Positions 7,220 through 64,000 of a stretch of 64,000 bases of DNA are shown here, one piece after another (the stretch's first letter is position 1; every line of letters begins with the position of its first letter). The notes below the pieces were generated by a model that made no database searches, had not been told where the DNA came from, and saw only the letters and a program-made list of their open reading frames with translations. Origin of the DNA: Dictyostelium discoideum (taxonomy: Eukaryota); contig CM000153.2 of NCBI GenBank assembly GCA_000004695.1, forward strand, positions 3,136,001-3,200,000. The letters run 5' to 3'. The position numbers were made by a program, and so were the translations under genes.

Positions 7220-7310
7220 TAGTATGTATGTCTTTTTTATTTTATATATGTATTTGTAATGATAAATTATGATATCAAACCTCCATTGTTTCATCATTCA
7301 TTCTGCTCAT
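6648..7310 (-). CDS. snrpD2: Small nuclear ribonucleoprotein Sm D2. Three exons: 7281..7310 (ATG at 7310), 6991..7140 and 6648..6806 (stop TAA at 6650..6648). Introns are 7141..7280 and 6807..6990.
   Basis: Exon 2 translates to [50 protein letters not shown]. Exon 3 translates to [52 protein letters not shown]. The result is collinear with human SmD2 ([87 protein letters not shown]). Splice sites are GTAATT...TATAG and GTTTGA...AATAG; the first donor is weak. The predicted product is about 112 aa versus 118 aa in human. None of these exons is in the ORF track because no start codon is in frame. Confidence 0.85.
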
Positions 7311-7837
7311 TTCGATCTTTATATATATTTAAATGTTTGGTTTTAATGAAAATTTCAAAAAATTAAAAAAAATAAAAAAAAATAAAAAAAAAAAAAAAAG
7401 AAAAACAAAAAAAAAAAATAAAAAAAAGTTTTATTTTTATGAAAATTATTCAATTGCACTGATCAGTTTAAAAGAGAGTTTTTGATCTACTTTAAATCTC
7501 AAGTTCCATTTTAACATTCAAGCCTAATATAGAAAAAAAAATATTAAAAAAAAATTAAAAAAGTTAAAAAAAATAAAAAAAAATAAAAAAAAATAAAAAT
7601 AAATAAAAATAAAATAAAAAATTTAAAAAAAATGATTGGAATTAAAAAAGTATTAATTTAATTAAACCAACACTTTTACAAAAAAATAAAAATAGATTTG
7701 AAAAAATAAATAAAATAAAAAAAATGAAAAAATGAAATAAAAAAAATAAAAAAAAAATGAAATAAAAATGAAATAATAAAGAAAGAAAAGTTTTTTTTTA
7801 ATTAATTATTTATTTATTTTAAGATTTATATTCTGTT

Positions 7838-9135: not shown

Positions 9136-9173
<38 letters not shown>

Positions 9174-9296
9174 GAATATAAAAAGTTTTAAATAGAGTTT
9201 AAAATTAAAATTTATAATTTAAAAATAATAGGTAAAATATCTTTGAAACTTTAAATTTTATATTTTAAAAAAAATAATACTCTCCATTTAATATTA

Positions 9297-9370
9297 GCCG
9301 TTTTAAAAATCGGTCTTCAAAAATTCAAATTTAAAAAAATTCACACTTTGCGCCGTTTTAAAATTACACC
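9297..9370 (+). promoter_or_regulatory. Two copies of a GC-containing motif (ttaGCCGTTTTAAAAatcgg at about 9297..9316 and gcGCCGTTTTAAAAttacac at about 9350..9369). They sit 270-350 bp upstream of the histone H1 start codon; candidate histone promoter element.
   Basis: Seen in the sequence: the 12-mer GCCGTTTTAAAA occurs twice within 60 bp, embedded in otherwise pure A/T spacer. Any regulatory role is inference only. Confidence 0.25.
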
Positions 9371-9642
9371 CAAAACACAAAAATCCAAAAAAAAATAAAA
9401 AAAAACAAGTATCAAAAAATTTAATGTGGTTTTTTTTGTAATTTTTTAAAATTTTCTAACCCAATTTTTTTTTTTTTTTTTTTTCTTTTTTCTTTTTTTT
9501 TTTTTTTTTTAAATCATTCACACAAAAAAAAAATAAAACAACCATACTCTCTTAGTTGTTATTATATATACATAAATTAAATTAAATTAAATTAATATCT
9601 TTTTTTTAAAAAAAAAAATAAAAAAATAAAAACAAATTAAAA

Positions 9643-14879: not shown

Positions 14880-14926
14880 TTTTAATAATTATTTTTACAA
14901 CTAAAAAAAAAAAAAAAAAAACCAAC

Positions 14927-14960
<34 letters not shown>

Positions 14961-15285
14961 AATTCAAAAAAAAAATTTTTTTTTGTTTAAAAATAAGTAA
15001 AAAAATCTTTTTTTGAAATGGTTTTTTTTTTTTTTTTTTTTAAAAATTTTTAAAAATTAAAAGTTTTAAATTTGGAATTTTTTTTTTTTTTTTTTTGGAG
15101 GGAAATTTTTAAATTAATGGGGATAAAGTTTTTATAATTATGGAATTTGTTAAAAAAAAAAAAAAATTTTAAAAATTTTAAAAAAATTTTTTGTTTTTAA
15201 ATATAAAAAAATTAATTTAAAAGGTTAAGAAAATATTTTTTAAATATCCCCAAATTTTATTTTAATTTATGGTTTCAAAAACAAA

Positions 15286-15316
<31 letters not shown>

Positions 15317-15722
15317 TATTTTTTTTTTTATTTTTTTATAAAAAAAAAAAAAAAAAAAATAAAAAAAAGATTTTTTTTCAAAATTTTTTTTTTTTTTTTT
15401 TTGAACACAAACGATTGTTATTGTAGGTAAAAACATTTTATAATACAATCATCATTGGAATAAATGGTATTTTCATTTTTTTTTTTTTTTTTTTTTAATT
15501 TATTTTATTTCGGGAATTAAAGAAAAACACAAAAAATAAATAAAATAAATAATAAAATAAAAATTAAAAAAAAAAAAACAATCACACAATCTTAAAAAAA
15601 AAAAAAGAGATATTTTAAATTAATTTTATTATTAACTTTTTTTCTTTTTTTTTTTTTTTTATTTTTTTTATTTTTTTTATTTTTTTAATTTTATTTAGAA
15701 TATTAGGAATATAATAAAAAAG

Positions 15723-16583
15723 ATGCAAATTTCAGATTTTATTCTTGTAATTATTGGATCAGTTGCATTAGCAGCAGGTGTTAAATATGTATTTACTTTA
15801 ACATCAGGTAGTAATAAAGATAAAAAAGGTGGTGAAGCAGAGAAAGGTAAACAAGTTGAAAAAGCATTAGATCCACAAGAATATAGAAAGTTTCAATTAA
15901 AAGAGAAATTCATAGTGAATCATAATACTAGAATCTTTAGATTTGCATTACCAAATGAAGATGATATTTTAGGTTTACCAATTGGCCAACACATTTCATT
16001 GAGAGCAGTTGTTGGTGGCAAAGAAGTTTATCGTCCATATACACCAATTTCATCAGACGAAGAGAGAGGTTACTTTGATCTCTTAATCAAAGTCTATGAA
16101 AAGGGTGCCATGTCAGGCTACGTTGACAACATGTTCATTGGCGACTCAATCGAAGTTAAAGGTCCAAAAGGTAAATTCAACTACCAACCAAACATGCGTA
16201 AATCAATCGGTATGTTAGCTGGTGGTACAGGTATCACTCCAATGTTACAAGTCATCAAAGCAATCTTGAAAAATCCATCCGATAAAACTGAAATCTCTTT
16301 AGTCTTTGGTAACATCACCGAAGAGGATATCCTCCTCAAGAAGGAATTGGACGAATTGGCTGAAAAACATCCACAATTCAAAGTTTACTACGTTTTAAAT
16401 AATCCACCAAAAGGTTGGACTCAAGGTGTTGGCTTTGTATCTAAAGAAATCATTGAATCACGTTTACCTTCTCCATCTGATCAAACTATGGTTATCATGT
16501 GTGGTCCACCAATGATGAATAAAGCAATGACTGGTCATTTAGAAACTATTGGTTTTAATGAATCAAATATTTTCACTTTTTAA
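15723..16583 (+). CDS. cyb5r1: NADH-cytochrome b5 reductase, 286 aa, single exon.
   Basis: N-terminal membrane anchor, then an FAD-binding RPYTP motif (YRPYTPISS). NAD-binding motifs GGTGITP and CGPPMM follow. The protein is collinear with cytochrome b5 reductases. Confidence 0.9.
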   Translation: MQISDFILVIIGSVALAAGVKYVFTLTSGSNKDKKGGEAEKGKQVEKALDPQEYRKFQLKEKFIVNHNTRIFRFALPNEDDILGLPIGQHISLRAVVGGKEVYRPYTPISSDEERGYFDLLIKVYEKGAMSGYVDNMFIGDSIEVKGPKGKFNYQPNMRKSIGMLAGGTGITPMLQVIKAILKNPSDKTEISLVFGNITEEDILLKKELDELAEKHPQFKVYYVLNNPPKGWTQGVGFVSKEIIESRLPSPSDQTMVIMCGPPMMNKAMTGHLETIGFNESNIFTF

Positions 16584-16679
16584 AAAAAAAAAAAAACAAA
16601 TATTAAAAAATAAAATAAAATAAAAAAATAAAAAAAAATAATATATATATATACATAATAATTTATTTATTTAAAAATA

Positions 16680-16727
<48 letters not shown>

Positions 16728-16729
16728 TT

Positions 16730-17630
16730 TTAATTTTTAATTAAAACAGGTAAATAATAAGTAATCATTATATCAGTTAATACAACATGAACAATTATTG
16801 AACGTTCATAAAGACATAAAACAACTTCACTAGGTTTTAGTTGATGTATATGGAGTACTTTTGCAAACTTTTTAATATCAACACAAACGGTTGCTTGTAA
16901 ATCTGGTGATAAAACATGATCACCAAATTGTGGATGATCTAAACCACTATAAAATGTACTGATTGAACCAGAACTAGTTTCAACTTCAAATGATAACCGA
17001 TTGTTCATTGCTATCATAATCTTTAAACAATCTGAAATATTCTTCATTTTATCAATTACTTTTTGTAAATTCTTTAGATTTGGTAATAGAATATGTACCA
17101 ATGGATCTGGTAATGTGGGTTCATTAATTTGTGCCATTTGTTGTGCAGTTAAAAGAACAATTGGTATATCTTGAAAGATTACTGTACCACTTGTACCACT
17201 CTTTATTATAAAATGTAAAACTGGTCCACCCCTAACTTTAGTTAAATTTGTAAAAATATCACTTACTCCATTTGAAGTTGCTGATTGTAATACACGACGT
17301 AAACTTTCTAAATCCAATTGAAATTGAATTTCATTGTCACTCAATGATTCTATTGTAAAGTTTTCAAATATTAAACTTCTTTGAATTTCACAAAAAACTT
17401 GCATTCCATCATTAAAATCACTCTGTATAATGAATCTTAATTTATCTGGTGTTATATGACAAATACATTCATTATAAATTTTCATTATATTTTGAACTGT
17501 CTCTGTAAAATTTTTAAAAAAAAAAAAAATAATAATAATATTAGTTAACATATAAAACTTTAGGAGTATTAATAAATATTAACTTACTTAAAAGTATTGA
17601 TGCTTTTGAAATCTTTGCTTTAAATTTCAT
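16730..17630 (-). CDS. hus1: Checkpoint clamp protein Hus1 (9-1-1 complex). Two exons: 17588..17630 (ATG at 17630) and 16730..17502. Intron 17503..17587 has donor GTAAGT and acceptor TTTTACAG.
   Basis: Exon 1 translates to MKFKAKISKASILL (human HUS1 begins MKFRAKIVDGACL). The joined protein continues ..KTVQNIMKIYNECICHITPDKLRFIIQ (human ..[26 protein letters not shown]). Later segments PDPLVHILLPNLKNLQKVIDKMKNISDCLKIM (human [32 protein letters not shown]) and the C-terminal YYLPVL match Hus1. Confidence 0.8.
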
Positions 17631-18039
17631 TCTATTTTCTCTATTATATTATATTTGTTTTGTTTTTTTAATTAAAAATAAAAAAATAAAAAAAAAAATG
17701 AAAATTAAAAAAAATAAATAATAAATGGTGCGCCAAAAAAAAAAAAAAAAAAAAAAAAAAAATAAAAAAATTCCACGAAATAATGTTTTAATCCTAAATG
17801 GTAAAAAAATAAGTGTTTCGTTTTGTTTTGGAAAATAAGTTTTATTTTATTTTATTTTTTTTATTTATAAATAGATTTGATTCAATTTAAATAATTTTTT
17901 TTTTAATAATCCAATGATAAAAAAGGGTCCATTTTATTTTTTATTTCAATTTTTATTTTTATTTATTTAATTTTTTTTTATTATTAATTTTTATTTTTTT
18001 TTTATATTTAATAATTTTTTATTTTTTTATTTTTTTTAA

Positions 18040-18258
18040 TTAATCAATCTCATGATTGGTGTTTTTTTTTTTTTTTTTATTATTTTATTATTTTTTTTTA
18101 TTTTATTTATTTTTAATTAATCAATCTTATGATTAGTGTTATTAATAAATCAAATTGATTAATTAATTATAATTTTGATTATTATTTATAACCATTAATT
18201 TACAAAAGTAAAAAAATGATTATTATTTATAACCATTAATTTACAAAAGTAAAAAAAA
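18040..18258. repeat. Local direct repeats in the spacer upstream of the 18785 gene. (1) aattaatcaatctYatgattRgtgtt at about 18041..18068 and 18115..18143. (2) A perfect 40-nt tandem duplication gattattatttataaccattaatttacaaaagtaaaaaaatg x2 at 18178..18258.
   Basis: Seen directly in the sequence. These are unusually information-rich (non-homopolymer) repeats for an A/T spacer. Confidence 0.8.
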
Positions 18259-18784
18259 TGGAAAAAAGATGGTGTGGAAGAAACAAAAAGGGTCTTAACC
18301 ATATCAACACCCAAAATTTTTACAATCAAAAAAAAAAAATAAAAAATAAAATAAAAAAAACAAAAAATAAAAAAAAATAAAAAAATAAAAAATTTTTTCA
18401 ATAAAAAAAACTTTTTTTTATATAAAATTTTTTTTTTTTTTTATATTTATTATTTTTTTAGCAACCAACAAAAAAAGATATTCAAAAAAAAAAACAATAA
18501 CAATTGTTCCTTTTCAATAGTTTTTTTTTTTTTTATTTTTATTATTATTATTTATGTAGAATTTAAATAACTACATCAGGAGGGGATTAAAGCAAAAAAC
18601 AAAAAAAAACTAAAACAAAAACAAAAACAAAAATAAAAAACAAAATAATTTAGAAACACATAGATTTAAAAAAATAAAATAAAATAAAATAAAATAAAAT
18701 AATAAAAATAACATCAATTTTTTTAAAAAAAAAATAAAAAATTAATTCACTTGTACATTATAAAACAGAATAAATATATCAAAG

Positions 18785-18874
18785 ATGGTATCACCAAGTA
18801 CTAAATCAAATGATGGTACTGTACCATCATTAACAAACAACAACAATAATGGTATTTTTATTTTTAATATTCTA

Positions 18875-18906
<32 letters not shown>

Positions 18907-20380
18907 CCTAATATTTTATTTTTTATAATTTATTTATATAGTTAATAATAATAATAATTTAAATATAGAAATGCCAACATTATCATTAAAAATGGCAAAT
19001 GATTTATTATTAGAGATGGAAAATTTTATAAAGACAGATTTAGCAATGTTAGAGAAATTTTATACAACAGATTATAGGGATGTACCACATGAAAGGGCAA
19101 TAAATAAAGCAAAAAGAAAATTTGAAAAGAGGAGAGGACCATTATTAATTAAACCATTGAATAAAACTAAAAAGAAGATGGTAGTTGGTGAAATGGAATA
19201 TGATCCAAGATCACAAGTTTGGAAAGGTAATTATAATGATTTGAATGCATTCCCAAACCCACCAGCACTTATCACAAATATGGGTGTCAAGACTGATGAA
19301 TCGATGAAATTGGGTAACATGAAATGGGATCCAAATCAAAAGGAGTGGAAAGGTAATGAAGGTGATTTAACCAAATTTAGATTCTTAAAGCCTGCACTCA
19401 TTAGTCAGTTAACACCAAATTTGGATAGTCGTGTCGAGAATGGTATGATCTATGATCCTATCGCAATGAAATGGAAAGGTAATGAAGATGCATTGGATGT
19501 CTTTGAAACAATGGATGATCAAAACAATGATAATACCTTTACCGTTGGTAAAGAGTTTAATTTAACACCATCTTTAATCGCTTCCTTCAAGAAATCCTCA
19601 GAAGCTCACACTAAACAATTAAGTGGTTGGTTTGAAAATAGAGATCTCATTGATAGGGAATATTTGTATAGTATTAGATCAATGTCAATTATCAAATTGG
19701 TTAAATCTGCCTCTTACACAGGCCATGGTAATAATTCTGGATCTGCAAATGGTTCAGGCTCTAGTAGTGGTGGTGGTGCTTCTAATCATCAACCATCATC
19801 ACCTGGTGGTTCAGGTATTATTCCTTTAATACCATCAAAAAAGAAACCAGTTATCGATGAAACTAAAGATTGGGATGATATCGATTTTCAAGAGAAGCCT
19901 GCACTCAAATTAAATTTAAAGATTCATCACGATGCTGAAGATGAAAGAATGATGGCAATGAATGATGAACCAAATTGGGATAAAGAAATGGGTTTCACCT
20001 CTGAAGAGGAAACTTTATCATCAAATAATGAAAATGGTGGTCAATTATCTTCTTCATCACAACCTCATACCCCAAGAAAAACTGTTGAAGAATGGTCCGA
20101 TTTTGATAACACAATGAACTCTACTATCACTGGTAAAATCACACAATTAAATAAAAAAGATAGTAATCTAAATGGTACAAGTAATAGTAGTTTAGGTAAT
20201 CTAATTAATTTCAGTGGTGGTAATATTAGTAATAGTAGTGGTGGTGGTGGTGGTGGTGGTGGTGGTGGTAATAATCCAAAATCATCAGATGATGAAGATT
20301 TTGATTGGACTGGTAATAATACTTTAACAAGTGTAACACTTTCTGGTACATTATATAATAATAATAACAATAATAATAAC

Positions 20381-20465
<85 letters not shown>

Positions 20466-21637
20466 TCAACAACAATAATAATAATAGTGGTAGTATTAAA
20501 TCTAAAAAAGGTGGTAGTCTTAAAGGTGTTTTCATTGGAAATAGTGGATCAATTAGACCTAAAAAGACATCAGATAAATTAAAACGTGGTGGTACATTTG
20601 GTAATATTCAATCATTAGCCGCAGCAATGGCATCAAATACACCATTAAGCTCTAGTAGTAGTACAGTTGCAGGTGGTAATGTTAATGATCTCTATGATGA
20701 TGTTTTCCCAGTGCCAAATGGTTCAGTATTTACCCTTAGAAATAAACCACATGAAGATAACTTTGAAATGTTTTTAGAGAGTAGTAATGGTATTTCAAGT
20801 CCAAAGGATGAACCTTGTGATGAAACTATGAAATTCTTTGAGAGTGAAAAAGATGTTTTCGAAGAGGATTGGCCTGATGTGCGTGTACCAGCTGATTTAG
20901 GTCAAAAGAAATCTCACGAAAGTAGAAAATCACCACCAATCAAAAATAATCTCGTAGAGGATTACTCTGATGAATTGGATATGCCAAAGGTTAGTCAACC
21001 ACTTCAATTGAAAAAACATACTCTCATTGATAATCCATTTGGTGATGATGATGATGTTGGTTTCGAAAATGATAATGATTTTGATTGGGATGATGTATCT
21101 TTCCCTGAAAATCCTTCACAATTAATTTCCTCAACCTCAAAACTTTCAAAACCAATACCTGTTACTGCAAACTCTTCAAATACAACTTCAACCACCACAA
21201 CAACCACAACTACAACATCAAGTAATATTATAATAAATAATATAAAACAAACTAATAATAATAATATTTTTACACCATCAAAAATTAATAATATAAAACC
21301 AACGTTAACACCACAACAAAACTCAAATAATAATTTTAATTTCCAAACTCCTTCATCAACACCATTCCGACCAATTTTCACAAAAAATTTAGATGGTGAT
21401 AATAATAATAATATAAATAATATAAATAATAATAATAGCGCTAATAATACTTTACCAACACCATCAAAAATTAATAATATAAAACCAATGTCAACACCTC
21501 AAAATGTAACACATTTCACTTTCCAAACACCAAATACAACTCCATTCAAACCAACCTATAAACCTAAAAGTGTTATCGAGATTATGAACTCCGATTCTCC
21601 ACCTCCTTCTTTTGAATCTGATAAAAGAAATGTATAA
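18785..21637 (+). CDS. Protein with three tandem about 45-aa repeats (motif M-x-[YW]-DP-x4-W-K-G-N) followed by long low-complexity S/N/T-rich sequence. Candidate Byr4/Bfa1-like (GAP co-factor) repeat protein; family uncertain. Two exons: 18785..18851 and 18969..21637; intron 18852..18968 (GTATTT...TATAG).
   Basis: Exon 1 is MVSPSTKSNDGTVPSLTNNNNN, joined in frame (G+AA gives E) to MPTLSLKMANDLLLEMENFIKTDLAMLEKFY... The repeats are MEYDPRSQVWKGNYNDLNAFPNPPALITNMG, MKWDPNQKEWKGNEGDLTKFRFLKPALISQL and MIYDPIAMKWKGNEDALDVFETMDD. A 40-residue poly-N is encoded by (AAT)n at 20345..20465. The ORF itself is solid; the Byr4/Bfa1 assignment is from memory of that family's imperfect repeats and is low confidence. 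Confidence 0.7.
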
Positions 21638-46159: not shown

Positions 46160-46241
46160 ATGAGCAATGCAAATGGAAATAGCAATGGAAAACAAAATAA
46201 TGATTTAGAAGATTTACAATCATTAAATTTATTACTATCAA

Positions 46242-46329
<88 letters not shown>

Positions 46330-48727
46330 TAATAATAATAATAATAGTAATATTAGTAGTAATGGTAATATTAATTATACAGAATCACAAACATTTAAAG
46401 AGCATCCAATAGGTTTACCAAAACCTGTTCAAGAATTTGTTACAAAATTAATGACACATAGAAACAATTTAATTGAAACCAATGCAATAGATAAACCATT
46501 TTTAATTCCACCATCAAAAGAAGTAGTTGATTTATTTAAAACTTATAAAAAGTCAATGAATGATGCTAATGGTATTCAAGATGAGGATCAAGATGATACA
46601 GATGATGAATTCGCTTTATTACCAGATGATCATTATGATGAAGAATTAATTTTAGATGAAGATTATCAAGATGGTAATGATGAAAATGATACTAATAATA
46701 GTAATAATGCAAACACAACTACACGTAATAATACAACTACAGCAATTCAAAATAATGCTTTAACAATACCAAATTCATCATCATCATCATCATATAATTT
46801 AATTGAGGCAATTGGAAATTTAAATAATAATAATACTTTAGGAACAACTACCACCACAACGACAACCACCACTACAACAACATCATTACCAGATTTAAAT
46901 TTAAATTTTGATTCTTCTGAATTATTTAAAAAATTTAAAAATGATAACCACCAAAATCATGATAGTAATATAAATAATAATAATAAAATATTAAATGATG
47001 GATTAGATGTTACAAATTTATTAAAAATTAATAAAGAATATCAAGAATTTATTAAAAAATATTTACAAAAGATTGAAGAAGAACAAAAGAGAAATAAAGA
47101 GATGTTAGCACAAGCTAGAAAATCAATTCATGTTACAATTGGACCAAGAACTATTAAAGGTGGTGGTTTTAGAAAGAAAGGTATAGCAAAGGAACAACTT
47201 GATAATAGTGATAGTGATAATGGTGGTGGTGGTAATGGTGGTGGATTCGATGATGAGTATGTAAATTGTAGTTGTATTGGTACATGTATATGTATAGATT
47301 CAAATGGTCAACCACTTTTTAAAAGAAAGAAACCTGGTATTCCATATTTTTCATTTGAAGTTGAAGTTGATGGTGTAATTCAAACTCATTATCCTGCCGA
47401 TAATCCTGATAGTGAGAATATTAGAATTACAAAGAATAATATGCCATTATATTTTAAAACTAGAAGATGGACAAAGAAAGAATCTGAATTATTATTAAAA
47501 GGTATAAAAGAAAAGAATTTACAAAAGAAACTTTATAGATTATCAGAGGATAAATTATCAAAAGCAGAATATGAAAAAAAGCTTAAACAAATTCAACGTT
47601 CATCAAATAATAATAATAATAATAATAATAATATTAATAATAATAACAATAATAATAGTATCAAAGATAAACAAGATTTTGTTGCACCAACTATGCAAGT
47701 GATATCTCAAGTTTGTGTTGAAAGTTTAACACGTTCACCATTGGAAGCTTATTTGAGATGGAAGAATCATGATGATCCTTCAATTAATAAGGGACCATTT
47801 ACAAAAGAAGAGGATAAGAAATTATTAACTTTAGCAAAGAAATATGATGGCCATGAATGGGAGAAGATTTCAATTGAATTGGGTACTAATAGAACACCAT
47901 TAGCTTGTATTCAAAGATATCAAAGAAGTTTAAATAGTAAAATGATGAAAAGAGAATGGACAAAGGAAGAGGATGAAGTTTTAGCTGGTGTTATTAAACT
48001 TCATATGCATGGTGAAAGAATCGATTGGCAAGAGATCACCGAATACATTCCAGGTAGAACAGGTCATCAATGTTTACATCGTTGGCATAAAACATTGGAT
48101 CCCTCAATTAAAAAGGGTCGTTGGTCACCTGAAGAGGATCAATGTTTAATTAATGCTGTCAATGCCTATGGAAAAGGTAATTGGATTCTCATTAAAAATC
48201 ATGTAAAAGGTAGAACCGATGTACAATGTCGTGAACGTTATTGTAATGTATTGGATCCACAATTGACTAAAATTCGTTGGACCCCTCAAGAAGATAAACG
48301 TTTATTCGATATCACAAATAAAGTTGGTATTGGTAAATGGTCAGACGTTGCTAAACTCATGGAAAATCGTACTGATAATCAATGTTGGAGACGTTGGAAA
48401 CAATTGAATAAATCAAGTAATGTATTAAAAGATTATCAAGAAAAAGTCTCTAAAAAGAAAGAAATTTGTGTTAGTAATTTCTCTGGTCGTAAACATGAAA
48501 GATCAGAATTAACTGTTGATGATGTTATTGAAATTGAAGAAAAATTAAATCCAAAATCAAATAAAAAAACTAAAACCTTAACCTCAACAACTACAACTTC
48601 AACAAACCCAACAACAAATAATAATAAAACAGACAATATTGATAATCAATGTGGAAAAAATAATGATTGTAGTACTTTTTGTGGTATTGATGATCATTAT
48701 GATGATGAACTTTTACAAAAAGATTAA
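46160..48727 (+). CDS. Myb-domain protein with four to five tandem Myb/SANT repeats in the C-terminal half (SNAPC4/SNAP190-like arrangement), 855 aa.
   Basis: Successive repeats carry the regularly spaced Trp/Glu-Asp signature. (1) [17 protein letters not shown]. (2) [48 protein letters not shown]. (3) [17 protein letters not shown]...[28 protein letters not shown]. (4) [49 protein letters not shown]. (5) [46 protein letters not shown]. The SNAPC4-like call rests on repeat number and arrangement only. Confidence 0.8.
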
Positions 48728-53132: not shown

Positions 53133-53396
53133 ATGGAAGATTTACCAACAGAAACATTGATTTTAATATTTAAAAATTTAAAAATTAATGAATTATTAAA
53201 TGTTGGATTAGTTTCAAGATTCTTTTTTTTAGTTTCATCAGATGATAGATTATGGAAATTATTATTTATTGATAAATTTGGGTATACAAAAATTTTTAAA
53301 AATGAAGAAGAATTAATAAAATTAAAAAATGATTTTAAAAATCAACAACAACAAATTTTAAAAATAAATAAAAATAAACAAAATAATAATATTAAT

Positions 53397-53433
<37 letters not shown>

Positions 53434-56400
53434 TTTTATCAACATCAATACCACAAAATCAAAATGAAAATAATATTAATATTGATAATGATAATGATAT
53501 TTCACAACATTTATTACAAAAACAAATTAATAAATTACAAATTTCAATTTTATATTTACAACAACAAAATTTAAAAGGTTGGAAACATTCCTATAAAAAA
53601 AATTTATTATTAGAATCAAGTAATGGTATGGAGATTATTATTATTATTTTTTTTTTTTTTATTTTTTTTTTTTTTTTATTTTTTTTTTTTCAAAATATGG
53701 AAATATGTTGACTTTTTTTTTTTTTCCAATTTTATATAAATAGAATTATTAGATTCAATTTTAAAAGAAGATTTTAGTAAAACTGATCGTTTATTATCAA
53801 TTAAATTATTAACAAATAATAATACATATTTAAGAGCAGCAGAGAAAATTATAGTTAAAAATCAACCTGAATTATTGGAAAAAGTTTTAAAATATTGTCC
53901 AATTGATAGTGTTTTAGGTTATTTTTACATTCAATCTTATATGAGATTAATTACAATTGCAATTCAAAGAAATTCAATAGCATGTGCAAAACTTTTATTA
54001 AATTATGGTGCAGATGTTACCTATTCAAATACTGGTGTATTATTAATGGGTTGTAAAAATAAAGTTTTCCCATTAAATGGTGAGTTTGGTAAAATGTAAA
54101 TAAAAAAAAAAAAAAAAAAAAAAAAGGATATATTTTATAAATTTATTAATATATAATTTTTTTTTTTTTTTAATAAATAGAATTGGAACATTCCCAAGAT
54201 TATGTAGTAGTAGTCCAGAATTATCATATTACTTTTTAGATGCATTATTATCACAGATTACATTCTTTTTATGCGTTCAATCAGGTAATGAATTAACATT
54301 ACAAGATTATGTTAAAACTATGAGAGGTGCAGCATTTATAAACAAAAGAACAGGTATTTGGGATTATGGTCATGAGATATTAAGATTTTCTGGTGTTTTC
54401 AATTTAGAAAATAAAAAAATAAATATTACTAGAAAATCACCTGCTAATAATAGTTCAAATATAAATATAAATTCAAATGTAAATACAAGTGGTACTACTA
54501 CTACTACTACAATTTTACAATCTCCAATATCATCAATAGGGTTACATACAACCAATAATTCACCATCACCAATATCAGCATCACCACTAAACTCACCATC
54601 ACCATCATTATTAATATCACCAAATTATAAATCAATAACTATAACAGATGGATGTGGTGGTGGTGGAGTACTTGGTAATGTTAGAACATTGAATGGTAGT
54701 AGTGATAGTGAAAGTGATCATTTATCATTGGATAATATGTCAAAAGTTAGATTCTCACAATTTAAAATGATTGAAAAAACATTATCACAAGTAACATTAG
54801 ATTGGTCAAGTGAATATTGTTCATATACACCACTTCATTGGGCTTCAAAATGTGGTCATCTTGCAAATATTAAAACTTTAATTAAAATGGGTGCTGATGT
54901 AAATGCATTAACCTCACTTGGTAAATCTTCTTTTGATATTGCAAAAGAAAATAAAAATGAAAATTGTTTAATATTTTTAGAAAAGCAAATGGTAATTATT
55001 AAATTTATTTTATTTTATTTATTTCATTTATATTAAATATTAAATATTAATTTTTTTATTTTTTAAAGTCAAAAACTATAAAAATTCAAACATTTGAACC
55101 ATTATTTCAATTAATTAAAAAAGGGAATTATATTGGATCATTAAAATTTTTAAGTACATTTATGTTTGAAAAATCATTAAAGCATTTAGAGAAACCAATT
55201 TCAACTAAATTAATAGCACATACTATTGAATATGATCAACAAAAGATATTAATTGGATTATATCCATTATGTTTAAATGTAAATTCAATATCAGATGAAG
55301 ATGGTAATACACCACTTCATTATGCTGCAGCTTTAGGTAGATTAGAATGTTTAAAAATTATAATTAATGGTGGTGAAAAAGTTTATAATAATAATAATAA
55401 TAATGATAGTGAAATTAATGATAGAGAAATTAATGATTGTGAAGATGATGGTAATATAAATATTAATTGTGTAAATAAAATTTATCAAACTCCATTAATT
55501 TTAGCAACTATAAATGGACATTTAGATATTGTAAAATATTTATTAGAGAATAAATCAGCAAGTGTTGATATTGTAGATTGGCAATTGAATACACCATTAC
55601 ATTATTCATTCAAATATCCAGATATTGTTGAAATATTATTAAAACATCATTCAAATCCATTTCAAATTAATAATTTATCAAAGAATTGTTTACATTTAGC
55701 AGTTGACGTTTCAAAGAATGATAATAAAATTAATAGAATTAAGAGTTTAAATATTTTATTAACCCATATCGAAAGACAATATCAAGATTATACATCTTCA
55801 AATTATTTCAATAACATATTCAATACTCTAGATTTATTTGAAAATACACCATTATTAATTTCACAATCTTATTATATAACTCATTTTCAAGATTATGATG
55901 ATAATGATATATTTAATGAAATTTCAAATATTTTATTAAAAAAAGAAGAAAGGAATAATAGTGGTAGTGGTAATGGTAGTGATGAATATATATTATCAAA
56001 ATCATCAAAATCAATAACTAATCAATTAAATTTATCATTTAATGATTTGAAGATAATATTGAATTTTAAAAGACCAATTGAATTAGAGAATTATTTGGCA
56101 ACCACTGTACCATTGAAACCATCAGTTGCAATGCTATCAATTTTGAAACTGGGTGGTACTATATCGATTGAAACATTTGAAAAATTGAAATTACAACATC
56201 ATTTAATGTTAGAATCTTATATAAAGAAATTAAAATTTTTAAATTGTTATAATCAATTAATTAATATTCATACAAGTTCAATTGAATCAATTATTGAACA
56301 ACTATTAATAATTCAACAATACCAATTGAAATCATTTGCTTATAGCTCCATTGAATATATTTTATCAGTTTATTTAATTTCAAATAGATTTGAAATCGTA

Positions 56401-57462
56401 GTTTATTTAATTGAAAATTTAAATAGAATAATGAATTCTACAACTTATATTGACAGATTTCAAACATTCATTTTCAATAGTATTTTACATACACCATCAA
56501 TTCCTCAACAATATTGTAGATCCTTATTATCACCCTACACAACTAGATTTGATTCTTCATTATTTCAACATGTAATTTCATTAGATCATCATATTATGTT
56601 AATATCAATGATTACAAATGATGATGATGATCCATCACCACCATCACCATCATCACCACCAATATCAGAAATTAATTATAAATTTAGAATGAATTTAGCA
56701 GTTTCAAAATATTGGATATTTTCAAGAGTTGTTAAAAATGGTGCAATTAAATGTTGTAGATTTTTAACAGATATGTTATTTAGTAAATCATTGGATTTTG
56801 AATTTACACATTCATTATTATTAAATGTTTCAGAATTAAGATCAATAAAGAATAAAAGAGAAATCATTAATATTCTATCACATTATGATTCAAATTCAAT
56901 AATTGAAGCATTAAAAGATAATCCAGTTTCACCAAATGCAAATGCATATTTTGATTTCTATTATTCATTAGATAATAATAATGGTAGTAATAATCATGAT
57001 ATCGATAATAATAGTATAATTTCAAAGAAACCATTAATTGAAATTGATTATCATCAAAATTCATGTGAAAATCATCCACATGATTTAAAAAAAGAGTATA
57101 TTGAAAATTGTCCAAATAAATGTGGAGTAAAGAATATTTTAGATTTAGAAGATCATTTATTAATTTGTTTAAATGGTTTTTATAATTGTCCAAATAAAAT
57201 CAATGGTTGTCAATCTGAACCAATGTCAAAATCAAATTTATTAAATCATTTACAAAAACAATGCACTTATTTACATTGTCATCAATGTGATGGTAATTTT
57301 AATCGTCAAGATTTCGTTCAACATATTTTCACCCACGAATCTGATACATGGGAAATTTGTTCATTTTGTAATCAAATGATTAAAGGTTTCTCTTCAACTT
57401 ATAAAAATGATATAATTCATATTCGTGATTGTTCTTTAAATTTAATTAATAATAATCATTCA

Positions 57463-57542
<80 letters not shown>

Positions 57543-57729
57543 AAAATCAATTTTATTTAGTTCAGAATATGAACATTTAAAAGTTTGTAAGAATCATAAT
57601 ATTAAATGTCACTCTTGTAAAATAACAATTCATATTTCAGAATTATCAACTCATAAATGTTTATTTATATCAAAAATTCCAATTTTAAGAAATTATTTAA
57701 ATATTCAAAATCTTGTTGATCTTATTTAA
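53133..57729 (+). CDS. F-box / ankyrin-repeat / TRAF-type zinc-finger protein, about 1434 aa. Exons: 53133..53625, 53744..54083 (3' boundary ambiguous; alternative end at 54079), 54181..54991 and 55069..57729. Introns: GTATGG..AATAG, GTTTGG (or GTGAGT)..AATAG, GTAATT..TAAAG.
   Basis: F-box: LPTETLILIFKNLKINELLNVGLVSRFFFLVSSDDRLWKLLFIDKFG. ANK repeats: YTPLHWASKCGHLANIKTLIKMGADVNALTSLGKS, DGNTPLHYAAALGRLECLKIIINGG, QTPLILATINGHLDIVKYLLEN and NTPLHYSF. The C-terminal Cys/His-rich TRAF-type zinc finger is CPNKCGVKNILDLEDHLLICLNGFYNCPNKINGCQSEPMSKSNLLNHLQKQCTYLHCHQC...HIFTHESDTWEICSFCNQ. Frames of the 192-, 74-, 238- and 855-aa track ORFs are connected by the listed splice sites. The exon 2/3 junction needs a phase-2 donor; only the weak GGT GA|GTTTGG satisfies the frame. 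Confidence 0.7.
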
Positions 57730-58180: not shown

Positions 58181-58227
<47 letters not shown>

Positions 58228-58806
58228 TGTTTTAATATTTTTATTTATAAATTTTAAAGACTTTTAAACTATTATTGGGTTTATTATTATTTTTATTATT
58301 ATAATTATTATTTTAGTTTTTATTTTTATTATTTTTTAATTTTTAATTTTTAATTTTTTTAATTTTAATTATTTTCCCAAAAAAAAAAATTTTTTAAAAT
58401 TTTAATTTTTTTTTTTTAATTTTTTTTTTTTAATTATTTTTCAAAAAACACCACACGACACATAAAAAAAAAAAAAAAAAAAAAATTGTTTTATTAATAA
58501 TAAACTAAAAATTTATAGCAAAACAATTTTATTTATAAAAATAAAAAACCACTTAACTATTACTCCTCATATATTTTTAAAATAAATAAAAAAACATTAT
58601 AAAATATAATAATTCATATGGTTAAAAATTTTTAATAAATAAATCAATATTAATAAATAAAATTAAATTTATAATAGAATTAATTAATAAACTTTTGTAA
58701 TAACACCCAATAATTTATATAAAATAATAAAAAAAGAAAAAAGAAAAAAAAAAAAGAGAGAAACAAATAAATATTTAAAAAAAAAAAAAAAAAAAAAAAA
58801 AACAGA

Positions 58807-61134
58807 ATGTCACATGAAGATAGAGGTGGTGACTACTATCCAATGATGGACGATCCAGAGGATAGAAATTTTATACAAGCAAAATATCCAAACTCAACAG
58901 GTCATATGTCAAGTGGTGGTGGTAGTAATCATATGTCATTTGATGATAACCATGGTATAGAAATGTTAAGAGATGATGAACATTCTCTTTTACATGAATC
59001 ACCTGTGTCAATTCCAGCAATTCACAATTTAGATAGTTTTTTAACAGATGTTTACAATTATTTTCGTGGTAAAGGTTTTATGTGTATATTTTTTAATGAC
59101 CTTTTCGAATTAGTGTATGTATATATATATATATAAAAATAGTTAAAATAAAAAATACTAATTATTATTATTTTTTAGTTCATCATTATTTGTTGTTTTA
59201 TTTTTCACATTTTTAGTATGTTTTGTAGATTATAGTAAATTATTTTCAGAGCAGATGCCTCCACCAGCATTAAGAGAGTCTGTCAATTTTTCAGCACCAA
59301 TACCAATTTGGTTAATGGTATTTTTAGTGATATTTTCATTATATTGGTTAAGTAAATTATTTTCATTCTTTTCTAGTATTAAAACCAATTGGGAAATTAG
59401 TAGTTTTTATAAAAACACTTTAAAGATTAATGAAGATGATATTCAAACAATAGAATGGAGAGAAGTTGTTTCAAAGATCGTTTTAGTACCAAGACTATGC
59501 ATTGTCAAGGAGAATATGAACGCTTTAGATATTGCAAATAGAATTATGAGAAAAGAAAACTATATAATTGGTTTAATCAATCAAAGAATTTTAAATTTAT
59601 CAATACCTTTCCCATTCCTTAGAAATTTAACTTTTATAACTAAAACTTTAGAATGGAGTTTAATGTATTCTTTATTTAATTATATTTTTGATGAAAATGG
59701 TATTATTAAAAGTGAATTTCAAGATCCAACTCAAAGAAAAAGATTATCAAGAGGGTAAATTAATTATAAAAAAAAAAAAAAAAATTAAATTATTTTAAAT
59801 TCTAATTTTATTTTAATTTTTTATTTTAGATTATCACGTAGATTTATGACAATTGGTATATTAGGTTTATTTACAACACCATTTATATTCTTTTTCTTAT
59901 TAATAAACTTTTTCTTTGAATATGCTGAAGAATTAAAGAATAGACCAGGTTCATTATTTAGTAGAGAATGGTCACCTTTGGCACGTTGGGAATTTAGAGA
60001 ATTAAATGAGTTACCTCATTATTTTCAAAATAGATTAAATCTTAGTTACTCTCATGCTAATCAATATGTTGAGAGTTTTCCATCACAAATGTTATCAACA
60101 ATTGCAAAATTCATTAGTTTCTTATTTGGTTCAGTTTTGGCAGTTTTCATTGTTTTGGGTATTGTCAGTGATCACTTTATAATGAATTATCAAATCTTTG
60201 ATAGAACCCCAATTTGGTATATTGGTATTTTAGGTACAATCGTTGCAATTACTCGTTCATTGATTGTTGATGAGAATCAAGTTTTTCAACCAGCTAAACA
60301 TATGGCAAGAACTGTTCAAAACACTCATTATCTTCCAATGAGTTGGGTCGGTAAAACTCATACTCATAAGGTACGTGACGAATTTTTGGTACTCTTTGAA
60401 TATAGAATCGTTGATTTCGTTAGGGATATCTTTTCAGTTCTCTTTACACCATTCATTTTAATATTTTCTTTACCAAAATCTTCACAAGCCATCATTGACT
60501 TTTTTGGAAACAATACAGTGGTTTTAGAAGGTGTTGGTCCAATTTGTCAATTGGGTGATTTTTCAAACATTAGAAAATTGGGTGATAATTCATTTGGTTC
60601 ATTAAATCATTCTCAAAATAAAATTAGTTTAACAAATAATGCAAAATTAGAGAAATCAATTATAAACTTTAAATGTTTAAATCCAGAATGGAATACTGAT
60701 AATAATGAATTACTTCAAAATCTTAATGAATTTTCAAAGATAAAGAATAATAATAATAATAATAATAATAATGGTAGCAATAATCATATTGGTAATCATT
60801 CTCAACTTCCAACAACTTCAGTAGATGATTTCCAATTTATTCATGATAGTCATTATATTCCTCATGAAATTATTGATGCCGTTTTGGGTACACATCATCA
60901 TTCTCAACAATCCAATAACAATGCTCCAAGATTTAAAACTGGAAGAGTCGACCAAAATATTTTAAACGCTGTCAACGATGTAAGTTTAACTTTTTTAAAA
61001 AAAAATTAACAAAATTATATATATAATAAATATTTATTAACTTTTTTTTTTTTTTTTTTTTTTTATAGCTCCATCAATCATTTTATGAATCCCAATATAA
61101 ACATAAAAATGATAACTTTGTAAATTCAATTTAG
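58807..61134 (+). CDS. atg9: Autophagy-related protein 9 (Atg9; lipid scramblase), about 674 aa. Four exons: 58807..59112, 59252..59754, 59830..60979 and 61069..61134. Introns: GTGTAT..CAGAG, GTAAAT..TTTTAG, GTAAGT..TTTATAG.
   Basis: Atg9 core: LDSFLTDVYNYFRGKGFMCIFFNDLFEL | QMPPPALRESVNFSAPIPIWLMVFLVIFSLYWL...EWREVVSKIVLV...DIANRIMRKENYIIGLINQRILNLSIPFPFLRNLTFITKTLEWSLMYSLFNYIFDENGIIKSEF.DPTQRKRLSRG | LSRRFMTIGILGLFTTPFIFFFLLINFFFEYAEELKNRPGSLFSREWSPLARWEFRELNELPHYFQNRLNLSY...YLPMSWVGKTHTHKVRDEFLVLFEYRIVDFVRDIFSVLFTPFILIFSLPKSSQAIIDFFGNNTV. Compare human ATG9A HRILRFQNYMVALVNKSLLPLRF and RDEFAQLFQYKAVFILEELLSPIVTPLILIF. The last 22-codon exon (LHQSFYESQYKHKNDNFVNSI*) is predicted from splice signals only. 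Confidence 0.85.
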
Positions 61135-61398
61135 ATTAATAAATAATATATAAAAACATTTATAATTACTTTCAGATTATTTAAAAAAAAAAAAATTATT
61201 TCATTTTATTCATTTCCATGTTTTTTCGTTAATATTAATGGAATTTTATTATCTCTTTTATTAATATTATTATTATTTAATACGATTATAATATTACAAT
61301 AAAAAAAAAAAAAATACTACTTTATTAAATGTTTTTTTTTTTTTTTGTTTTATTTGGTTTTTTTTTTTTTTTTTATTTTTTATTTTTTATTTGTATTA

Positions 61399-62752
61399 TT
61401 ATAATATTTTTGCTGTAACATCATTGTCAAGATCAGGTTCCATTAATAAAGAAAATTCTTTCGCTAATTTTAATTCACCTCCAACAGATTCATCGAAATT
61501 GTATTGCATATAAAGACTATCAGCTGTTAAAACCATGGCAGTTTTATTATTTTGCATTAGAGCACAAATACTTGGAATACCGGGTGGAATTTTAATGTGT
61601 GCAAAATCTCTTGATGGTTCCCAAACTTGACTAATTACTTCTGGTAAATAAGAACTCATTTTTGAAGTTAATCCACCAAAATTTAAACCCATCATACCTC
61701 CACTCGGTGATGAGGATGGTTGTGCTTGATGAAAAGATGAAGAATTTGAAGAACTGAAATCAATTTTAAATATATGAATTGTACCAGTATCACTCGAAAC
61801 GCACAAATATCTACCATCCAAACTAAATGTCATACTATGAATGATTGCAGGTATTGAACCACGTCTAAATGATAATGATTTATTGGCATAAGGTAAGGCA
61901 AATACACGAATAACCGTACCTTTATCACTTGCTGTTGCCAATAATGTACCATCCTGACTTAATGCTAATGCTGAAATTTGACTCTTATGCGCTTGAATTA
62001 AATTTACTGTCTCTAATGTTAATACATCCATCACTAAAATATTACCATTGTTTTGACTCGCTGGATAAACTATATAATTGGTATTTGAGGGTGATAATGC
62101 ACATAATCCTTTTGGATTTGATGCTATCTCTCTTGTCTCTAATAATTTCATATTATTTATATCATAAATATGTATTTTTGTTTCCATAATAACTACAATT
62201 CTAAATTATTATTATTATTATTATTATTATTATTTATTATTATTACTACTATTAATAATTGTTTGAACCTCTAATTATAATAAATTTAACACCTATCTAT
62301 TTATTTATTTTACAATACCTTTTTCTATTCATTTTTACTGATAAAATCGCTGTTACAAAATTTAAATCGCAAATTGGAATATTATTTTTTATATTATTAA
62401 TTAATAACCTTCTTTGTGATGTATTTCCATCACCTGATCCAACAATTGATACTAAACTAGTTGAAAATAACATTTCAACCAATCCTGCTCCACCATTTGC
62501 TATAAATTATTCAATAATAATTGTTTTTTTTTTTTTTTTTTTTTATACTTTGTTAGAATCTTTTTACTTTTTTTAAAAAAAATAAAATAATATTGCTATT
62601 TACATATTTTACCTACATTGACTATAATATAATGTATATGGATCAGAATTGAAAATTTTATAACCTTCTGGTGTACCAACTGCAATACAACTAAAATCTT
62701 GATTAAAATTTAAAAATAATATACCTTCATTGAATTTACCTCCAACATTCAT
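61399..62752 (-). CDS. WIPI/PROPPIN beta-propeller protein of the WDR45 / WDR45B (WIPI4/WIPI3) type, about 370 aa. Three exons: 62617..62752 (ATG at 62752), 62314..62499 and 61399..62192. Introns are 62500..62616 (GTAGGT..TTTATAG) and 62193..62313 (GTAAAA..TTGTAG).
   Basis: Joined protein: MNVGGKFNEGILFLNFNQDFSCIAVGTPEGYKIFNSDPYTLYYSQ-S-NGGAGLVEMLFSTSLVSIVGSGDG..RRLLINNIKNNIPICDLNFVTAILSVKMNRKRY-F-IMETKIHIYDINNMKLLETREIASNPKGLCALS...LATASDKGTVIRVFALPYANKSLSFRRGS (the FRRG phosphoinositide-binding motif). The C-terminus is ..SLYMQYNFDESVGGELKLAKEFSLL. This is collinear with WIPI proteins (LNRQRLIV.LEESLYIHNIRDMKVLHTI; LATASEKGTVIRVFSIP..LFEFRRG). Confidence 0.85.
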
Positions 62753-63244
62753 TTTTTGTGTGCGTTTTTATAAAAAAAAAAAAAAAATAAAAAATAAAAA
62801 ATAAAAAATAAAAAAAAAATAAAAAGATTTTTATGGTATTTGATTAAAAAAAAAATAAAAAAAAAAAGAAATGTAAAAAAAAAAAAAGATTAATTATATA
62901 ATTAATAAACTGTTTAATCAGATTACCATATGTTTTTTTTTTTTCTTTGATTTTTTTTTTTTTTTTTTTTTCTTTTGTTTCTTTTTTTAGTATTAAATTT
63001 TTAAAATTGTATAATATATGTAATAGTAATAAATTAATAATATACTATATATATTGGTAATAAAATAGATAATATAAATATTTAAAAAAAAAAAAAAAGG
63101 GTGTATTTAAAATGAAAAATTTTTTAAATTAATTTGTTTTTTTATTTATTTTTTTAATTTTATTTTTTAAATTAATTTTTTTTTTTTTTTATTTAAAAAT
63201 TTAAAATTGTATAATTTTTGGAAATTTGGAAATTTTCATACCTT

Positions 63245-63275
<31 letters not shown>

Positions 63276-63347
63276 TTAAAATAAATTAAAATTTTTTAAT
63301 TTTTTTTTAAAAAAAAAAAAAAAAAACCAGTCTAAATTATTAAGATA

Positions 63348-64000
63348 ATGAATATAGACTCGACTTCATTAAATAATAATAATAATAATAATAGTAACAA
63401 TAATTGTAGTAATAGTAAAAACAGTAATAGTTTAGATATTGAAATATACCCAAACATAAATAGACTTCATCGATATAATAGAAATGACTCTATTTATAAT
63501 AAGATAAATAGTGAAAGAAATAACACTCTGTTAAAACAAAAATGCATTTATTTTCAGGACGAAAAGAATAAAACAAATCCAACAACAACAACAACAACAA
63601 CAACTGCTACTACTACTACTACTACTACAACAGCAACTAGAATAGCGGCAGATAACAATAATGAAGAACTTATAAATACCAATATAAAATCAAAGATTAA
63701 ACACATATGTACATGTCCAATCGAATTCGATAATTTAGTAGATTATGAAAATCATTATCATAGTATACATAAGAATTTTTGCACAATTTGTAAAAAGAAA
63801 TCATATCCTACCTATAAACTATTAGAATGTCATATTTTAGAAACTCATGACAAATTATTTGAAACTTTATGTTTAAAAAAAAAAATGGTAATTATTTTGA
63901 TTATTGTTATTGTTATTATTATTACTAATCTATTTTTTTATTTTTTTTTTTTTTTTTCATTTAAAATAAAAACAAAACTCAGTTTGAGTGTTTTGTATGT
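63348..64000 (+). CDS. C2H2 zinc-finger protein (ZNF511-like), 5' exon only. 63348..63887 is followed by a GTAATT donor, and the gene continues beyond the window end.
   Basis: [24 protein letters not shown]... followed by HICTCPIEFDNLVDYENHYHSIHKNFCTICKKKSYPTYKLLECHILETHDKLFETLCLKKKM|GTAATT. This is a pair of C2H2-like units with the ZNF511-type 'FQAL/FETL' tail. It is absent from the ORF track because the frame is open to the window edge. Confidence 0.5.
   Translation, partial: MNIDSTSLNNNNNNNSNNNCSNSKNSNSLDIEIYPNINRLHRYNRNDSIYNKINSERNNTLLKQKCIYFQDEKNKTNPTTTTTTTTATTTTTTTTATRIAADNNNEELINTNIKSKIKHICTCPIEFDNLVDYENHYHSIHKNFCTICKKKSYPTYKLLECHILETHDKLFETLCLKKKMVIILIIVIVIIITNLFFYFFFFFSFKIKTKLSLSVLY

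Follow-up and report, generated by a model that had tools for sequence, protein, structure and literature searches.

The tail-to-tail atg9 and atg18 genes of Dictyostelium discoideum: a lineage-specific and probably neutral adjacency

Two autophagy genes, atg9 (DDB_G0285323) and atg18 (DDB_G0285375), lie tail to tail in the window, by which we mean the whole 64-kb stretch of D. discoideum DNA analysed here, and which lies on chromosome 4. Both genes and their positions are already known: they are annotated, have been studied experimentally and can be seen in genome browsers. We rebuilt their models using GT-AG introns that leave the reading frame open, and the locus is laid out as listed below.

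53133 to 57729, plus strand: multi-exon ankyrin-repeat gene upstream of atg9, with Pfam Ank matches
58807 to 59114, plus strand: atg9 exon 1, with the ATG at 58807; the sole in-frame GT-AG solution
59179 to 59754, plus strand: atg9 exon 2, GT-AG model
59830 to 60979, plus strand: atg9 exon 3; the donor GTAAGT at 60980 leads to a 699-aa product that is an exact database match
61069 to 61134, plus strand: atg9 exon 4, GT-AG model, including the stop TAG at 61132-61134
61135 to 61398, no strand: convergent intergenic spacer of 264 bp and 9.5% GC, harbouring poly(A) signals and 3' UTRs for atg9 and atg18 alike
61399 to 62200, minus strand: atg18 exon 3, including the stop; FRRG codons at 61869-61858
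62319 to 62499, minus strand: atg18 exon 2, GT-AG model
62617 to 62752, minus strand: atg18 exon 1, with the ATG at 62752
63348 to 64000, plus strand: C2H2 zinc-finger gene, head-to-head with atg18, continuing beyond the window

The initial annotation had recognised here Atg9 and a PROPPIN bearing the FRRG motif, and the rebuilt models bear out both identities as well as the strands and the 3' ends (61134 for atg9 on the plus strand, 61399 for atg18 on the minus strand). The atg9 gene (58807-61134, plus strand) encodes a product of 699 aa, 100% identical over its 699 aa to the D. discoideum AX4 'autophagy protein 9' (XP_638277.1/Q54NA3). The Pfam ATG9 profile PF04109 matches aa 70-539 with an E-value of 1.7e-173, covering profile positions 4-477 of 478 and scoring 578.4 bits against a curated cut-off of 27. 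Over aa 71-584 the best solved relatives are Atg9 (7d0i, 6.1e-102) and ATG9A (3e-87), the entries 7jlo, 6wqz and 6wr4 matching at about 1e-87. The gene is a member of the ATG9 family, orthologous to Atg9 in yeast and ATG9A in humans, and lipid scramblase activity and vesicle cycling are predicted for its product. It is the same gene as the known D. discoideum atg9 (DDB_G0285323, Q54NA3), with no differences, and knockout phenotypes of Dictyostelium atg9 have already been published (PMC8204557 and references therein).

The atg18 gene (62752-61399, minus strand) encodes 372 aa that are 100% identical over 372 aa to 'autophagy protein 18' of D. discoideum AX4 (XP_638278.1/Q54NA2). Pfam PROPPIN PF21032 matches at aa 14-358 (E 3e-60, profile 5-345 of 345, 204.7 bits with the cut-off at 30), the FRRG motif at aa 217-220 (window 61869-61858) aligns with that of the solved Atg18 5ltd, and an end-to-end alignment with the solved structures of Atg18 and WIPI2 points to a seven-bladed propeller. 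Among solved PROPPINs, similarity falls from Atg18 (E 3e-79, 270 bits) through WIPI2 (2e-65, 225 bits) and WIPI3 (1.6e-47, 166 bits) to WIPI4/WDR45 (2.9e-39, 139 bits), and the top matches are annotated as Atg18 or WIPI2. On these scores the window PROPPIN belongs to the Atg18/WIPI1-2 clade and falls outside the WDR45/WDR45B (WIPI4/WIPI3) clade, and in published trees, too, Dictyostelium Atg18 groups with WIPI1/2, Wdr45l instead joining WDR45/45B (PMC9037511, PMC8442847). The gene is the known D. discoideum atg18 (DDB_G0285375, Q54NA2), whose product falls in the Atg18/Atg21/WIPI1/WIPI2 clade of PROPPINs. It had been described as WDR45-type, a label that has to be dropped: the best scores are to Atg18 and WIPI2, and the WDR45 orthologue of Dictyostelium is wdr45l, a separate gene (PMC9037511, PMC8442847) that is unlinked to the atg9/atg18 pair.

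Atg9 and Atg18 both belong to the autophagosome-biogenesis pathway. PDB entries 8kc3 and 8y1l, of the ATG9A-ATG2A-WIPI4 complex, are among the matches of both window proteins, and since homologues of the two are present together in these solved structures, the pathway-level relationship is real. The further proposal that both products act at the same step is where the initial annotation went too far: the shared pathway stands, but the complex contains WIPI4 (WDR45) as its PROPPIN, and this corresponds in Dictyostelium to Wdr45l, not to the product of the gene adjoining atg9. According to published knockouts, Dictyostelium autophagy at the Atg2 step needs Wdr45l and not Atg18, which has 'only a marginal role' (PMC9037511). 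Dictyostelium Atg18 differs from its yeast namesake in being largely dispensable for bulk autophagy, and readers of this locus should bear in mind that the PROPPIN encoded next to atg9 and the one working at the Atg2 step in this organism are different paralogues.

The remainder of the window does not enlarge the pair into a group. None of 20 further long ORFs surveyed with Pfam in the 64-kb window proved to be an autophagy gene, and a larger autophagy cluster around atg9/atg18 was rejected on this ground. The zinc-finger gene also adjoins atg18 in D. citrinum, D. purpureum and Polysphondylium violaceum (tblastx); at locus L007 it carries a faint zf-C2H2_3rep annotation. The ankyrin-repeat gene on the other side has a product of about 1491 aa in D. 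citrinum and is collinear with L007 15176-19913. Two ORFs of 855 aa each upstream of atg9 (46160-48727 and 55162-57729) were considered as a possible segmental duplication, which was rejected: they are unrelated (best E 2.4), one being a Myb protein and the other an ankyrin protein. No tRNAs were found in the window, nor any Rfam family at gathering threshold in the spacer or the window. An ncRNA gene in the spacer was likewise rejected, the sole Rfam match being sub-threshold, due to chance and inside the atg18 coding sequence.

The distance of about 265 bp given earlier between the two 3' ends agrees with the 264 bp that we measure from stop to stop, but its description as very short does not survive comparison. 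Convergent intergenic regions of D. discoideum have a median of 241 bp (n=3,313; PMC3681616 Table 1), so that a spacer of 264 bp is of ordinary length, and other local convergent gaps run from about 40 to 860 bp (about 86, 146, 263, 444 and 625 bp elsewhere in the window, and 41-859 bp in nine related loci). Within the spacer, AATAAA occurs 4 nt past the atg9 stop and, on the other strand, 8, 15, 22, 45 and 73 nt past the atg18 stop, and candidate poly(A) signals reach as far as 190 nt (atg9) and 189 nt (atg18) into it. Compared with three close species, the spacer shows an identity of 0.67-0.72, where introns give 0.50-0.78 and 5' intergenic regions 0.54-0.72; its conservation does not exceed that of introns close by or of the other intergenic sequence. 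The sole transcript-like contigs found (P0019; L010-L013), for the Atg9 of a relative with 64% identity, end 16-33 nt past the stop, without a poly(A) tail; coming from a different species, these ends are suggestive at best of UTR length.

The adjacency is limited to the D. discoideum species complex among the dictyostelids sampled. D. citrinum, D. firmibasis and D. dimigraforme, close relatives whose proteins are 97-98% identical, keep the pair with gaps of 236, 257 and 260 bp, so the gap is nearly constant (236-264 bp) across at least four species of the complex. Around atg18 in D. purpureum, P. violaceum and Cavenderia fasciculata no Atg9 lies within 10 kb, and around atg9 in Tieghemostelium lacteum, Acytostelium subglobosum and Heterostelium album no PROPPIN does; the loci compared were centred on atg18 in the first three species and on atg9 in the other three. 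In the latter three, atg9 and atg18 are on scaffolds of different lengths. These absences were judged from annotation and tblastn in loci free of N-gaps; the possibility that annotation of these species had missed a PROPPIN close to atg9, or Atg9 close to atg18, was rejected, since tblastn gave none and the assemblies have no gaps there. D. purpureum and P. violaceum retain the zinc-finger gene upstream of atg18, and synteny with the window stops at the atg18 3' end (tblastx). The yeast and human counterparts of the atg9/PROPPIN pair are on different chromosomes. [quoted passage not shown] The D. purpureum atg9 is JGI model ID 45639, and its ID-neighbours are orthologous to DDB_G0283157 and DDB_G0283161 (orthologue table). 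Conservation of the adjacency in relatives, which the initial annotation itself had put forward as a test, thus fails in every species sampled beyond the D. discoideum complex.

A trivial origin of the pattern, in which the genes would not truly be adjacent and an assembly or annotation error had joined them, has practically no chance of being right. It is already refuted by independent assemblies of four species with the same arrangement, including the Nanopore chromosome-level assembly of D. firmibasis (PMC11193728), and in the window the sequence is continuous and the exon models are clean. Of more substance is the idea, raised in the initial annotation, that the two genes are linked in expression. 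The published data do not favour it. In RNA-seq, knockout of atg9 leaves atg18 changed 1.39-fold and not reduced (PMC8204557), much as does knockout of the unlinked atg16, in which atg18 changes 1.57-fold and atg9 1.42-fold alongside the unlinked atg1, atg8a and atg8b (PMC8204557). During infection, atg9 and atg18 are up at 3 hpi together with unlinked atg genes, and later atg9 remains up while atg18 declines (bioRxiv 10.64898/2026.09.10.750649); the same induction waves include the unlinked atg8a/b, atg101, atg3 and atg1. The two genes are therefore co-induced only in the company of unlinked atg genes, and they diverge late in infection.

Coupling in cis, whereby 3' UTRs overlapping in the spacer would link the two mRNA levels, positively or reciprocally, through read-through, antisense pairing or interference, appears very unlikely to us. 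Taken by itself, a gap of 264 bp is short, use of the distal candidate poly(A) signals would make the transcripts overlap, and the late-infection profile could fit reciprocal interference; however, both stops have an AATAAA within 4-22 nt, the spacer carries no extra conservation, and half of the 3,313 convergent pairs are at least as close, so that the mechanism would not be special to atg9/atg18. The small response of atg18 to atg9 disruption speaks against it as well, as do, weakly and from a different species, the short 3' ends of the related Atg9 mRNA contigs. A more elaborate version, in which a recent rearrangement together with overlapping 3' UTRs created a lineage-specific sense-antisense or interference link tuning the Atg9:Atg18 ratio, is in our estimate highly improbable; if true, such an overlap could account for sustained atg9 and declining atg18 late in infection. 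We consider it equally improbable that the rearrangement was fixed by selection as a shared chromatin domain improving the stoichiometric co-induction of the genes under starvation. Membership of both genes in the 3 hpi wave, their modest rise in atg16-null cells and the retention of the adjacency in four species would suit such a neighbourhood, but the unlinked genes respond in the same waves, the promoters flank the pair with about 4 kb between them, each bordering on a different neighbour, and D. purpureum and all other sampled dictyostelids outside the complex do without the adjacency. Moreover, the marginal part of Dictyostelium Atg18 in autophagy leaves little for selection to act on.

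How surprising the adjacency is depends on how the question is framed. Taking about 20-35 autophagy genes and 13,196 adjacencies, autophagy alone has a 3-9% probability of yielding one or more adjacent pairs; assuming about 10 same-module partners per gene, the genome as a whole should hold about 10 such pairs. That Atg9 in particular should adjoin one of a handful of direct partners has an a priori probability of only some 1.5e-4 to 8e-4, which would make pure chance uncomfortable had the hypothesis been stated beforehand; the stability of the pair across the complex likewise weighs against a neutral reading. The adjacency itself is plausibly no more than chance or background.

We are confident, on balance, that this is an ordinary lineage-specific adjacency arising from rearrangement, probably neutral and free of coupling in cis. 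Our data show the identities of the genes, their spacing, how far through the phylogeny the adjacency reaches and that the spacer has no extra conservation; that the adjacency is neutral, which way the rearrangement went and that coupling is lacking we infer, as follows. atg9 and atg18 would be independent monocistronic units, each having a separate promoter at the outer end and separate poly(A) signals within the AT-rich spacer. A chromosomal rearrangement most likely joined them in the lineage of the D. discoideum complex, after the split from D. purpureum, and the pair would persist because too little time has passed for breakage and not through selection for linkage. Any co-induction of the two would be driven in trans, through regulation to which unlinked atg genes respond as well. 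The tail-to-tail order, then, is no evidence for an autophagy 'mini-cluster' or for coupling mediated by 3' UTRs. One practical caution follows from the arrangement: disruption constructs for either gene come within a few hundred bp of the 3' end of the other, and effects on the neighbour are therefore worth checking.

Functional gene neighbourhoods do occur in eukaryotes, as in fungal metabolic clusters and the divergent GAL1-GAL10 pair. Our locus resembles these in that genes of one pathway adjoin, but it comprises only two genes, which are convergent and hence have no shared promoter, and it lacks deep conservation, constraint on the spacer and, on the published data, any expression coupling beyond that seen with unlinked atg genes. 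Its nearer likeness is to the generic convergent pairs of compact, AT-rich genomes. The spacing of atg9 and atg18 is like theirs and follows the A>B>C rule of D. discoideum intergenic sizes (825/602/241 bp; PMC3681616), and the pair differs from them only in that its two products share one pathway.

Both genes of the convergent pair were rebuilt by enumerating GT-AG introns and retaining those that leave the reading frame open, and every coordinate assigned to them in the initial annotation proved correct. The locus, which we take to lie on D. discoideum chromosome 4, is arranged as follows.

58807-59114, 59179-59754, 59830-60979, 61069-61134, plus strand: atg9, 4 exons, 699 aa
61135-61398: spacer between the atg9 and atg18 stop codons, 264 bp, 9.5% GC
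62752-62617, 62499-62319, 62200-61399, minus strand: atg18, 3 exons, 372 aa
61869-61858, minus strand: FRRG of Atg18, residues 217-220 of the rebuilt model

By exact-sequence look-up, the 699-aa product is D. discoideum AX4 'autophagy protein 9' (XP_638277.1, Q54NA3) and the 372-aa product 'autophagy protein 18' (XP_638278.1, Q54NA2), each covering its whole Pfam profile (ATG9, PF04109, E 1.7e-173; PROPPIN, PF21032, E 3e-60); both were already annotated and studied genes. AT content is extreme across the window (14-34% GC in 1-kb windows), and the intergenic DNA contains long homopolymer tracts, as expected for a dictyostelid genome.

The spacer had been described as very short, a view that the genome-wide figures do not bear out. 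In D. discoideum, intergenic regions between divergent (3,312), tandem (6,571) and convergent (3,313) genes have medians of 825, 602 and 241 bp, respectively, and the atg9-atg18 gap lies slightly over the convergent value (PMC3681616 Table 1). Gaps between the remaining convergent ORF pairs within the window are about 86, 146, 263, 444 and 625 bp, and those at annotated loci from nine other dictyostelid genomes span 41-859 bp, most of them falling between 50 and 260 bp. When the whole region was aligned across the four species having the pair, identity was 67-72% in the spacer, 50-78% in the five introns, 54-72% in the two 5' intergenic regions and 88-99% in exons. At the gathering threshold the window had no Rfam family, and relaxing the cut-off to E<=1 still gave none in the spacer; ARAGORN found no tRNA genes in the 64-kb window. 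Nothing suggests a shared element in the spacer, which is unconstrained. Homopolymer T and A runs of up to about 43 nt occur in the atg9 5' intergenic region (58183-58225, 58460-58486, 58770-58802); such runs are usual in D. discoideum intergenic DNA, and they probably explain why this region aligns poorly between close species (54-66% identity).

Flanks of 10 kb (6 kb for D. firmibasis and D. dimigraforme) were inspected in dictyostelid genomes, and the convergent atg9-atg18 pair was found at three loci.

D. citrinum (L007): gap 236 bp
D. firmibasis (L008): gap 257 bp
D. dimigraforme (L009): gap 260 bp

The D. citrinum locus is collinear with 51.7-63.9 kb of the window. Because Atg9 and Atg18 are 97-98% identical in these three species, and D. 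firmibasis is extensively syntenic with D. discoideum (PMC11193728), retention of the pair is uninformative on selection. Atg9 is absent within 10 kb of atg18 in D. purpureum, Polysphondylium violaceum and Cavenderia fasciculata, as is any PROPPIN within 10 kb of atg9 in Tieghemostelium lacteum, Acytostelium subglobosum and Heterostelium album, where the two genes are on scaffolds of different length; no assembly gaps occur in the loci compared. Conservation of the adjacency in related genomes thus extends only to very close relatives.

The breakpoint falls at the atg18 3' end, where similarity to the window ends in D. purpureum and P. violaceum, both of which still carry, head-to-head with atg18, a zinc-finger gene, with Nup85 and EXOSC1 also retained beyond it in D. 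purpureum. Synteny breaks at atg18 even though gene order is perfectly conserved in blocks that hold 63% of D. discoideum/D. purpureum 1:1 orthologues (PMC3188802). The D. purpureum atg9 orthologue is JGI model 45639, whose ID-neighbours are orthologous to unrelated D. discoideum genes. The zinc-finger gene, separated from atg18 by a divergent spacer of 587 bp (62753-63339), adjoins atg18 in D. citrinum, D. purpureum and P. violaceum, and its association with atg18 is conserved more deeply than that of atg9.

Window 63348-64000, plus strand: C2H2 zinc-finger gene
D. purpureum (L004) 8679-9512: C2H2 zinc-finger gene
P. violaceum (L005) 8557-9419: C2H2 zinc-finger gene
D. citrinum (L007) 8499-9514: C2H2 zinc-finger gene
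P. violaceum (L005) 5629-7548 and 16327-19318: TRM and FNIP genes
C. fasciculata (L006) 14290-16344 and 19556-20918: TRM and FNIP genes

The TRM (PF02005) and FNIP genes, common to the last two species within 10 kb of atg18 and differing by a local inversion, probably preserve earlier surroundings of atg18 that Dictyostelium sensu stricto has lost. On parsimony, the atg9-atg18 junction therefore probably arose in the D. discoideum-complex lineage, after its split from D. purpureum. The adjacency is young and lineage-restricted.

At its 3' side, atg9 converges on a Syntaxin-18-like gene in A. subglobosum (L002 12506-13913, gap 102 bp) and on a short-chain dehydrogenase in T. lacteum (L001 12478-13347, gap 170 bp), differing neighbours that illustrate how quickly tail-to-tail partners turn over. 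In C. fasciculata (107 + 253 aa; L006 9449-9891, 10001-10918) and D. dimigraforme (158 + 252 aa; L009 5294-5947, 6001-6759) Atg18 is annotated as two separate models, and the 1064-aa H. album Atg9 model (L003 10001-14217) runs about 1.7 kb past its last Atg9-homologous segment; these are likely errors in public annotation.

Overlapping 3' UTRs had been proposed to couple the two genes. AATAAA occurs 4 nt past the atg9 stop and, on the other strand, 8, 15, 22, 45 and 73 nt past the atg18 stop, with distal copies further into the spacer on both sides, but at about 12 copies per kb in the window its presence near the stops means little. Intronless Atg9 mRNA contigs (L010-L013; 706 aa, 64% identical to D. 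discoideum Atg9, 27% GC) from a dictyostelid-like organism, recurrent in several metatranscriptome samples (JGI 3300028107, 3300028160, 3300028165; SRR8437430), end 16-33 nt past the stop with AATAAA at +14 and without a poly(A) tail, and lend weak, indirect support to short 3' UTRs. Published expression points to control in trans: atg18 changes 1.39-fold in atg9-null cells, and in atg16-null cells atg18 rises 1.57-fold and atg9 1.42-fold alongside the unlinked atg1, atg8a and atg8b (PMC8204557 Table 1). During Mycobacterium marinum infection both join the 3 hpi wave with atg8a/b, atg101, atg3 and sqstm1, while later atg9 is still induced and atg18 down-regulated (bioRxiv 10.64898/2026.09.10.750649). 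That overlapping 3' ends let the two genes interact in cis, specifically in this lineage, is in our estimation improbable.

Linkage of this kind had also been called uncommon. With 13,196 adjacencies and 'around 20' core ATG genes (PMC8204557), a range we widened to 35, simulation put the chance that genes of this one pathway form at least one adjacent pair at 3-9%. The chance falls to 1.5e-4 to 8e-4 when Atg9 must adjoin one of 1-5 partners named in advance, yet the hypothesis was formed post hoc, in a scan flagging any pathway, and about 10 adjacent same-module pairs are expected genome-wide, given about 10 partners per gene. A Pfam survey of 20 further long ORFs in the 64-kb window turned up no other autophagy gene; among the products encoded there are APC1, histone H1, purple acid phosphatase, Hus1 and an FKBP. 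Two 855-aa ORFs 9 kb apart on the plus strand (46160-48727 and 55162-57729), considered as a possible duplication, are an unrelated four-repeat Myb protein and ankyrin-repeat protein, their equal length being coincidental.

The PROPPIN is indeed a WIPI-family member, so the objection that it might fall outside that family does not apply, but the label 'WDR45-type' names the wrong paralogue. Against solved structures, Atg18 best matches Atg18 (3e-79 and about 4e-71) and then WIPI2 (2e-65), with WIPI3/WDR45B (1.6e-47), WIPI4/WDR45 (2.9e-39), Atg21 and Hsv2 clearly weaker, and the published grouping of exactly two Dictyostelium PROPPINs places Atg18 with WIPI1/WIPI2 and Wdr45l with WDR45/WDR45B (PMC9037511; PMC8442847). 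The neighbour of atg9 is the paralogue of lesser autophagy role. An unusual or functionally meaningful arrangement is not supported: the spacing is typical, the adjacency young, the spacer unconstrained, the PROPPIN the lesser one and published expression explained by trans regulation. Wdr45l works at the stage where Atg18 acts in yeast, and Dictyostelium Atg18 was suggested to be a possible counterpart of yeast Atg21 or WIPI2 (PMC9037511); the premise that both products act at the same step is thus weakest for exactly Atg18. The pathway link is real, because the solved ATG9A-ATG2A-WIPI4 complexes 8kc3 and 8y1l, present in the match lists of both, contain homologues of Atg9 and Atg18 together.
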